Assembly: GCF_965641715.1 (NCBI RefSeq)
Contig: NZ_OZ282453.1
Strand: one strand, 5' to 3'
DNA: 64,000 bases
Origin: Escherichia coli
GTDB taxonomy: Bacteria; Pseudomonadota; Gammaproteobacteria; Enterobacterales; Enterobacteriaceae
A program made the translations under genes and the position numbers. Position 1 is the stretch's first letter, and each line of letters begins with the position of its first letter. This document shows positions 62,969 to 64,000 of the stretch, piece after piece. Under the pieces are notes generated by a model, which searched no databases, was not told the DNA's origin, and worked only from the letters and a program-made list of their open reading frames with translations.

Positions 62969-62990
62969 ATGGCTAAAGTTCTGGTGCTTT
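62969..62990 (+). pseudogene. wrbA: wrbA 5' remnant: first ~7 codons of NAD(P)H:quinone oxidoreductase WrbA, then disrupted
   Basis: ATGGCTAAAGTTCTGGTGCTTT = MAKVLVL matches the WrbA start; after 62990 the frame reads ...LHS-stop and the sequence becomes unrelated AT-rich DNA. Confidence 0.7.
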
Positions 62991-64000
62991 TACATAGCTA
63001 AACACGTACATTCAACTACCTGTTAATTACAGGACATAAACAGGTTAGTACCTATTCAATTTAAAGGCATTTCCCCAAGTATCTAAGCAATTCTACACAG
63101 ATTCTATGCAGTATCGGTATAGTCCCTTTTTATCATAACTTATTGAAATATATAAAGAATCTGTGAAGTATCTTTTCAGGGTAAACTGTATCGTGTTAGT
63201 CGTCCCTCTCCAGACACTACATATAGTGCTATATACAGGGTTATATAGCGATGTATAGATGCTTGGTCACCATACGTTACAGTTGCAAGAGATAACAATC
63301 AGCTATGTGAAAGTTAGGAAGTGATGGTTATAGTTGATTCGGTTAGTTCTAGGAATCAACCTCATAGTTACCTTGTCAAATCTTCGTAGTTCCTCTTAAA
63401 AAATCACTTACAGACACCTTAATATCTATACAGATTTCATGTAGAACACGATTAGTGCGTAAAAAAGCTATTATGTTAAAAACGCACTGTATACGTATCA
63501 GTACTGATTTATAAGGGTTTTGTGTATTGGCTGATAAGAGGCTATACAGCACCTTGAGAGCATGTCTTGTAAGTCATTGATACATAAGGTCACAGAAGTT
63601 TGTAGCTGTTACAGAGAAAACTGGATAGGACTTCACAGGACTATAAAATGTTACAGCAATTGATAGGTGAAATCTTCTTGATAGATGCTGTGAAGTGTGA
63701 TGAAGGTTTCTTGAGGTGGAGTTAACAGATGCTATGAAGAAAGTCAATAGATATTTTAAAATTCTGCAAAGGGGGCCACATAGCTGGTGTGACGGGTACT
63801 TAGCAGGTATAGACCTGTGATAGATATTTTCGAAGATTCGGGGAAGATGAGATTCAAAGAGGACTAGTCATTTTTTATAAAAATTTTCAGAGTCTGAAAA
63901 GTTACTGCACAGATTTTGCACAATCCTACCAAGCCTCATAGTTGATTCGATTAGAAGCTAATCTCATAGAAAGCTCTGTAGCGAGTTTTAACCCCATTTT
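62991..64000. mobile_element. Probable end of an inserted mobile element/prophage interrupting wrbA (extends beyond window)
   Basis: About 1 kb of AT-rich sequence with no ORF of 60 aa or more in any frame, starting at the wrbA breakpoint; contains short repeated motifs (tagttgattcgNttag, ctcatag). wrbA is an established lambdoid Stx-phage integration site in EHEC. Confidence 0.45.

Follow-up and report, generated by a model that had tools for sequence, protein, structure and literature searches.

At the right end of a 64,000-nucleotide stretch of Escherichia coli DNA (contig NZ_OZ282453.1, hereafter the window), the gene wrbA is cut behind its seventh codon and is followed, from 62991 to 64000, by AT-rich DNA that holds no recognizable gene. 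In the reading that we consider probable, this DNA is the attL-proximal, gene-free part of an island of approximately 11 kb, which carries a large serine recombinase and is parasitic on Felix O1-like phages (Felixounavirus). These phages are virulent myoviruses with genomes of ~87 kb and 39% GC, and they are the classic typing, biocontrol and therapy phages of Salmonella and E. coli. The gene-free DNA appears to serve as a helper-recognition region, for packaging and/or replication, in an apparently undescribed family of satellite-like islands. Comparison of the sequences firmly indicates that Felixounavirus phages donated two tail genes of the island, and that the gene-free region shares one module and numerous boxes of the class CTNNNNAG with the end of their genome. 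The candidate cis signal common to the island and its putative helper consists of phased boxes and a module of ~150–240 bp, which are otherwise found together in a 1.65-kb gene-free region of Felixounavirus. Because the gene-free DNA of the island copies Felix O1-type genome-end signals, the island probably parasitises these phages.

The junction is precisely defined. The first-pass annotation of the window had described an intact wrbA start with divergence at about 62991, and alignment with the intact K-12 wrbA and with the attR of a related insertion bears this out: wrbA is matched through 62990 and the break falls exactly at 62991, which by alignment puts the insertion point at wrbA codon 7–8. 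The GC content downstream of the junction is 0.35–0.39, compared with 0.50–0.60 upstream. DNA homologous to the segment is present in the chromosomes of 535 of the 5,426 complete E. coli genomes at 78–96% identity, and the same wrbA junction is found in 74 genomes, in which a 120-nt probe spanning the junction is covered. In the related genomes examined, the non-coding DNA is the left end of an island of ~11 kb. The same junction opens an 11.3-kb insertion in NZ_CP083585 (L001, ~20590–31930), which contains, from left to right, ~1.6 kb without open reading frames (ORFs), a Dam-type N6-adenine methyltransferase, another ~1 kb without ORFs, six small ORFs with no assigned function, a 682-aa tape-measure protein, a 256-aa Dit-like protein and, on the opposite strand, a 547-aa large serine recombinase. 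All island genes except this integrase lie on the + strand, downstream of the ORF-free region. Since the ORF-free stretch measures ~1.6 kb in relatives, it extends past the end of the window at 64000.

In the relatives, the large serine recombinase matches PHROG 95 (E = 1e-77) and contains the Pfam domains Resolvase (PF00239), Recombinase (PF07508) and Zn_ribbon_recom (PF13408). A recombinase with this domain set at one end of the island is the mark of a serine-recombinase element, and serine-recombinase integration is likewise indicated by the precise attL and attR with a short common core and the empty site in K-12. The same layout occurs at three chromosomal sites: wrbA (L001, L002), yciI|tonB (L003–L005, L015) and yecE/DUF72 (L014, L016, L017, L024), where the yciI|tonB and yecE copies encode 506–507-aa recombinases of the same type. 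As the same island body and ORF-free region are combined with three recombinase/att types, the family swaps its integration modules. Cargo genes of 666–921 bp, all hypothetical, sometimes sit between attL and the ORF-free region.

The island has the profile of a satellite in its relatives, a small integrative element without a capsid, terminase or replication machinery of its own and with six ORFs without assigned function. No capsid, terminase, lysis or stx genes are present in the related genomes examined, and the 10 island ORFs in relatives show no match to capsid, portal, terminase or polymerase families. Family matches in PHROG, NCBIfam and PADLOC are limited to methyltransferase, tape-measure, tail and integrase families, and the remaining island proteins give nothing past a weak helix-turn-helix (HTH) match in Pfam, PHROG, NCBIfam or PADLOC. 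The only known defence gene recognized by PADLOC is the orphan methyltransferase. One core protein of 236 aa (L001 26106–26816) has 3,081 relatives in a large protein collection, the majority in E. coli and others in Salmonella enterica and E. albertii. It is labelled 'transposase' by PGAP/RefSeq, a name that looks unsupported, with no backing in Pfam, PHROG, NCBIfam or PADLOC.

The first-pass annotation had taken the segment for the end of a prophage or island, most simply a lambdoid prophage converting its host to Shiga toxin (Stx) production. wrbA is a known target of Stx phages, and the DNA is AT-rich and starts exactly inside this gene, as a lambdoid or other conventional wrbA prophage would. 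However, the proposed BLAST comparison with Stx phage genomes, run with megablast and blastn against 50,697 phage records, returned no match for the 1 kb, and neither did 72,556 plasmids. All 74 same-junction genomes and the relatives examined belong to the 11-kb island family, whose virion genes are restricted to the tape-measure and Dit-like genes and whose integrase is of the serine type, unlike the tyrosine integrases of lambdoid phages. A conventional prophage end is thus scarcely credible, and the part of the earlier claim that stands is that the segment is the attL end of an integrated mobile element.

The two tail genes connect the island with one phage genus. The Dit-like protein shares 74% identity with gp075 of the Felixounavirus wV8, and the tape-measure protein shares ~30% identity with wV8 gp074 over 510 residues. 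The two genes are adjacent in wV8, as they are in the island. Both proteins match Felixounavirus only, and no match to the wV8 genome was found for the other island proteins.

A second connection lies in the ORF-free DNA itself (62991–64000, unstranded, 36% GC). CTNNNNAG denotes a class of 8-mers that is its own reverse complement. The window segment contains 22 such boxes against 4.7 expected (z = 8.1), the corresponding region of L001 (20590–22170) contains 36 against 8.5 (z = 9.0), and the ORF-free stretch of wV8 (13885–15531) contains 63 against 11.3 (z = 15.5). CTN3AG, CTN5AG, AGN4CT and GAN4TC, counted as controls, show no enrichment. Other AT-rich 1-kb stretches of the window (32–37% GC; ~21500–24000, 30000–36500 and 47500–48500), which served as negative controls, hold 0–4 boxes, compared with 17–25 per kb in the island ORF-free DNA, and wV8, scanned along its full length, shows a peak of box density in its ORF-free region only. 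The boxes are mostly spaced by 10–11 bp or multiples thereof. For distances of 10/11/21/22/32/33/43/44/54/55 bp, the window has 15 box pairs where 4.4 are expected, L001 has 18 (7.8 expected) and wV8 has 60 (23.3 expected); off-phase distances are depleted. TRF detects 16 arrays of 10–11 bp in wV8 and no tandem repeats in the window, so the island boxes are dispersed yet phased. Across eight aligned island variants, conservation amounts to 89–91% at box positions and 79% elsewhere. An enrichment of ACAG is accounted for by the broader CTNNNNAG class, to which it belongs. The second ORF-free stretch of L001 (22840–23870), between the methyltransferase and the next gene, contains 15 CTNNNNAG boxes against 5.1 expected (z = 4.4).

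Within the ORF-free DNA, a module at 63683–63926 (+ strand) is homologous to the genome-end region of Felixounavirus (wV8 14839–15059), as revealed by blastn, nhmmer and alignment. Short-word blastn aligns window 63683–63924 with wV8 14839–15059 at 66% identity over 229 nt. A nucleotide profile of four phage regions matches every island at the module; the E-value is 3e-17 in the window and ranges from 4e-12 to 1e-3 in the other islands. Several boxes are invariant among four islands and four phages, namely GATATTTT..TGCAAAGGG at 63750–63775, GATATTTT at 63823–63830 and TTTTATAAAAATTTT at 63873–63887; the GGGTACTTAGCAG stretch at 63794–63806 is partly invariant, with parts of GGG(T/C)TAC..A.CAG kept in the same eight sequences. 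The spacers between the invariant boxes are only 55–65% identical, even between two island alleles. A second homology block is matched in some islands only, past the end of the window. A recent import of the module from a phage was considered and rejected, as all islands are 55–59% identical to the phages across the module and only a 26-mer is identical.

This pattern of conservation also bears on another explanation of the gene-free DNA, that it consists of decayed genes or neutral spacer. Indels and mosaic alleles are indeed numerous among the islands in the ORF-free region. Neutral DNA would nevertheless have to account for box enrichment at z = 8–15, for the phasing, for boxes that are better conserved than their spacers, and for module boxes that are invariant across phages and two island alleles that are only 65% identical to each other. 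We regard this explanation as very improbable.

The phage counterpart, an unannotated ORF-free stretch of 1.65 kb in wV8 (L006, 13885–15531, 35% GC), lies between convergent genes. Its 63 phased CTNNNNAG boxes are accompanied by many 10–11-bp tandem arrays, the same region is present in 257 phage records, and no discussion of it was found in the Felix O1 and wV8 genome papers. Felixounavirus genomes end in exact direct terminal repeats, as reported by PhageTerm (PMC11737134); for UAB_Phi87, Bal31 digestion together with run-off sequencing gave a length of 608 bp (PMC4837284). At least four independent phage records start at one base, wV8 14351 (GCCCCCTTAACA), within the ORF-free region. In UAB_Phi87 (L021), this start sequence is located at 6481, and the addition of 608 bp leads to 7088, between two GATATTTT boxes of the module (7044 and 7116). 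The SpeI end fragments of 4322 and 2819 bp (PMC4837284), combined with the SpeI sites of the record, yield a repeat of 573 bp at L021 6409–6981. Both estimates place the terminal repeat within the ORF-free region. The records of H12, humlepung, typing phage 15 and Seyj1-1 do not hold both copies of the repeat. The first 69 nt of the humlepung record (L011 1–69) are the reverse complement of sequence ~60 nt inward, which looks like an assembly artefact at the physical genome end and is consistent with a terminus near wV8 14351.

Replication origins, too, typically contain phased short repeats in AT-rich DNA, and PLE satellites of Vibrio cholerae keep their origin in a non-coding repeat region. 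The boxes could therefore be iterons for an initiator encoded by the island, with the likeness to the phage reflecting shared origin ancestry; a candidate initiator would be the 313–326-aa HTH protein (weak HTH_36 match) that some island variants encode just downstream of the ORF-free region. Such a self-contained origin is unlikely, while deserving some weight: the island proteins show no match to known initiators, primases or helicases, the HTH protein is missing from the variant closest to the window (L001/L003 type), and the same boxes and module surround the phage terminal repeat.

The segment was further analysed for hidden genes and RNAs. The longest ORFs with a start codon in 62991–64000 encode 58 and 57 aa, both on the minus strand, so the earlier description of AT-rich DNA without an ORF of 60 aa or more on either strand is accurate. 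The longest stop-free stretch spans 97 codons (63577–63867, minus strand), a length that is reached by 7% of shuffles. It was rejected as a small gene, since it is interrupted by stops in 7/7 relatives and its substitutions are distributed over the codon positions as 29/43/30, with no third-position bias. A search of the 1 kb against Rfam (E <= 1) returned only chance-level matches (best E 0.33 and 0.49), far below the gathering scores, ARAGORN found no tRNA in the region, and the folding of both strands is unremarkable (z-scores −1.7 and −1.2). The suggestion that the segment might hold att, regulatory or non-coding RNA elements is thus upheld for att and other cis elements; the RNA part finds no support in Rfam or folding, and the repeated features are phased boxes at the DNA level.

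Control of the rightward genes by a regulatory leader or non-coding RNA region, for instance through helper-activated promoters, would fit the position of all island genes except the integrase, downstream on the + strand, and three weak sigma-70-like sites are found on the + strand of the region. A scan for promoters and terminators, however, detects such sites no more often than in shuffled sequence (4 against 4.6 expected), and neither the Rfam nor the folding results suggest an RNA. The phage homologue does not precede genes but sits at the genome ends, where the genes on either side converge, and a self-reverse-complementary motif class phased at the DNA helical repeat points away from a transcript. 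A leader function is improbable.

A large serine recombinase inserted the island in wrbA, with crossover within GTGCTTT. We infer that phage proteins bind the signals of the island and that the island is mobilised, along the following lines. On infection by a Felix O1-like phage, the phage proteins that act on the phage genome end would recognise the matching signals in the island; candidates are the terminase or the partner with which it recognises DNA, perhaps together with factors of replication or end processing. Replication and/or packaging of the island DNA would follow at the expense of the phage, as in a phage satellite (compare cos/pac sites), and the island tape-measure and Dit-like proteins might enter or perturb the helper tail. 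A bolder proposal is possible, although we lean slightly against it: that the islands are widespread, undescribed satellites of the strictly virulent Felix O1-like phages, found in ~10% of E. coli as well as in Salmonella and E. albertii, and that they are the enterobacterial counterpart of PLEs. They would hijack the phage through the genome-end module and the phased CTNNNNAG arrays, and would contribute tape-measure and Dit-like proteins of their own that either rebuild the helper tail or sabotage it.

The boxes and the module homology could also belong to a defensive decoy, a chromosomal island that titrates or misdirects the terminase or DNA-binding proteins and whose tail proteins poison assembly, conferring immunity without transfer. 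Tail-assembly interference by mobile elements is documented (PMC11364771), and no packaged form of the island was found in IMG/VR or among assembled contigs. A decoy alone is unlikely, in that the element is clearly mobile, with three att sites and matching recombinase types and with copies in Salmonella and E. albertii, and therefore needs some vehicle; no known defence gene was detected in it besides the orphan methyltransferase.

Several points weigh against parasitism on Felix O1-like phages. The link between island and phage is drawn from sequence, and only the first 1 kb of the island is inside the window, so that the island body is inferred from relatives that are 78–96% identical. An exact 24-mer scan of IMG/VR revealed no excised or packaged form, and the short contigs of 11.3 kb and 12 kb (L024, L031, L026) carry chromosomal flanks and are not excised forms. 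A DNA of 11 kb is too small for an 87-kb head, and a gene that could resize the capsid is not recognisable. The boxes are also enriched approximately twofold in the coding DNA of island and phage, so part of the signal may be compositional. Collinearity of the whole region with the phage terminal repeat was considered and rejected, as the order of the homologous blocks A and B differs (in the phage the second block is upstream of the module, in the islands downstream) and nothing resembling the left terminus of the phage was found in the island. Finally, the 573-bp estimate of the terminal repeat starts ~70 bp further left than the 608-bp one, which leaves the repeat boundary uncertain by ~100 bp.

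By its logic, the closest known system is the PLE of Vibrio cholerae, a satellite of the virulent myovirus ICP1. PLEs are likewise small chromosomal islands with a large serine recombinase and without capsid or terminase genes; they have a virulent myovirus as helper, which is presumed here, and contain a long non-coding repeat stretch with a cis function. In contrast, PLEs reside in Vibrio and target VCR repeats, whereas the present islands reside in E. coli at wrbA, yecE or yciI|tonB, and no sequence relationship was detected in family searches, in which the island proteins were not compared directly with PLE proteins. RepA, TcaP and NixI homology and VCR integration, which define a PLE, are absent as judged by PHROG, NCBIfam and PADLOC families and by the att sites. 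The island further differs in carrying helper-type tape-measure and Dit-like genes and a copy of the helper genome-end module. P4, PICI and cf-PICI are also E. coli chromosomal elements with an incomplete set of virion genes, and they carry a helper packaging signal (cos/pac) in cis, as the island is proposed to do; unlike the present island, they have tyrosine integrases, alpA, pri-rep, sid/psu/delta or capsid genes of their own, and temperate helpers. None of these hallmarks (tyrosine integrase, alpA, pri-rep, sid/psu/delta, capsid genes) was detected among the island proteins. Membership in the PLE, PICI, cf-PICI or P4 groups is unsupported.

The Stx lambdoid prophages 933W and Sp5 share the target gene wrbA with the island, but they have no DNA similarity to it and measure ~60 kb rather than ~11 kb, and the island combines a serine recombinase with a lack of stx and lambdoid genes. 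The Felixounavirus terminal non-coding region (wV8 13885–15531) resembles the ORF-free DNA in its phased CTNNNNAG boxes, the GATATTTT/TGCAAAGGG/TTTTATAAAAATTTT module, ~35% GC and the lack of ORFs; the island copy differs in lying in a chromosome beside an att site, in boxes that are dispersed rather than tandem, and in the order of the homologous blocks. A more general likeness is to T7-like phages, whose terminal repeats hold arrays of short repeats. Like phage 21 in icd and tRNA-targeting islands, the relatives' island rebuilds its target, wrbA, at attR; unlike them, it replaces the 5´ end of the gene, so the island must also provide expression signals.

In the literature accessible without subscription, neither a satellite of Felix O1-like phages nor a description of this island was found. 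Felix O1-like phages are considered to be strictly virulent and to have no relatives in chromosomes. An island in approximately one in ten E. coli carries tail genes and end signals of their type. If the proposed parasitism is true, the island could limit or redirect Felix O1-like phages in therapy and biocontrol, and chromosomal DNA could move between strains via a virulent phage. The phased CTNNNNAG boxes and the GATATTTT/TGCAAAGGG/TTTTATAAAAATTTT module could then reveal the packaging or end-recognition signal of Felixounavirus, and the islands would offer a second genetically tractable system, beside Vibrio PLE/ICP1, for parasites of virulent phages. For annotation, the insertions in wrbA, in yecE and upstream of tonB are currently labelled only 'recombinase', 'tape measure', 'baseplate' and the unsupported 'transposase'.

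On the chromosomal side of the left border of the island, the window encodes rutE, rutF, rutG and, on the minus strand, ymdF, followed by wrbA, which starts at 62969. The orphaned wrbA 5´ end (62969–62990, + strand) comprises seven codons and one nucleotide, ATGGCTAAAGTTCTGGTGCTTT, as aligned with K-12 wrbA, and its frame runs on as MAKVLVLLHS to a stop at 63001. The K-12 attB, the window attL and the L001 attR are identical over the 7 bp GTGCTTT (62984–62990, unstranded); judged by this alignment, strand exchange by the large serine recombinase of the island must fall inside these 7 bp. The adjoining 62991–63017 (unstranded) forms an attP-derived arm that is specific to the wrbA-type recombinase, being identical in the wrbA island L001 and unrelated in the yciI|tonB islands. 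It is followed at 63018–63045 (unstranded) by the inverted repeat ACCTGTTAAT..ATAAACAGGT, which was located by repeat search and island alignment, is also present in L026, and is the first sequence kept among the islands regardless of the integration site. This repeat may be an operator or accessory site. Since the first ~27 bp differ between integration sites and the common sequence starts at 63018–63045, the ORF-free region is a shared module separate from the att arm.

The opposite end, attR, lies outside the window, and the rebuilt wrbA is read in relatives only. In the wrbA island L001 (attR, 31881–32502), the island provides GGAGAACAATGATATG and the codons MSVKARILVL in frame with the remaining wrbA. 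An island-borne ribosome-binding site, the ATG and the first nine codons (MSVKARILV) thereby rebuild a full-length WrbA of 201 aa, so the insertion need not inactivate wrbA.

The short internal repeats and the stem that the first-pass annotation had named were both recovered by repeat search: ATAGTTGATTCGGTTAG at 63330–63346 and ATAGTTGATTCGATTAG at 63938–63954 are the two copies, and the stem GTTGATTC...GAATCAAC spans 63333–63360. The first copy and the stem belong to a longer element, CATAGTTGATTCGGTTAGTTCTAGGAATCAACCTCATAG, at 63329–63367 (+ strand), a dyad with 8-bp arms that is a candidate site of a small serine recombinase. A second, partial copy, CATAGTTGATTCGATTAG...CTCATAG, lies at 63937–63969 (+ strand) inside a 28-bp indel, according to the repeat search and the island alignment, and the consensus CATAGTTGATTCG(G/A)TTAG is found at both 63329 and 63937. 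Further CATAGTTGATTCGGTTAG...CTCATAG copies are located in L002 (12927, 13885 and 15512), L018 (3278 and 4263) and L026 (92, minus strand). In the sibling islands L002 and L018, the copies border both sides of a gene for a small (183–191 aa) serine recombinase of the resolvase/invertase type, and in L026 the repeat copy is inverted together with this gene. The homology between the window and L002 ends immediately after the first copy (63329–63367), and the window keeps two copies without the small serine recombinase gene. Plausibly, these are the candidate sites of the small recombinase, left behind in a variant that lacks the gene, and as such they are candidate recombination sites for cassette exchange or inversion.

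The 28-bp segment that carries the second copy (63932–63959) lies between CTCATAG direct repeats; the window and L003 have this segment, L001 and L005 do not, and it creates the second TTGATTCG copy. In a scan of contigs across genera for the ORF-free region, a partial E. albertii contig was the sole return. Island remnants interrupted by IS1203 occur in Shiga-toxin-producing lineages, at yecE in O157:H7 strain E32511 (L017) and at yciI|tonB in RM9975 (L018), and O111 strains likewise carry them.

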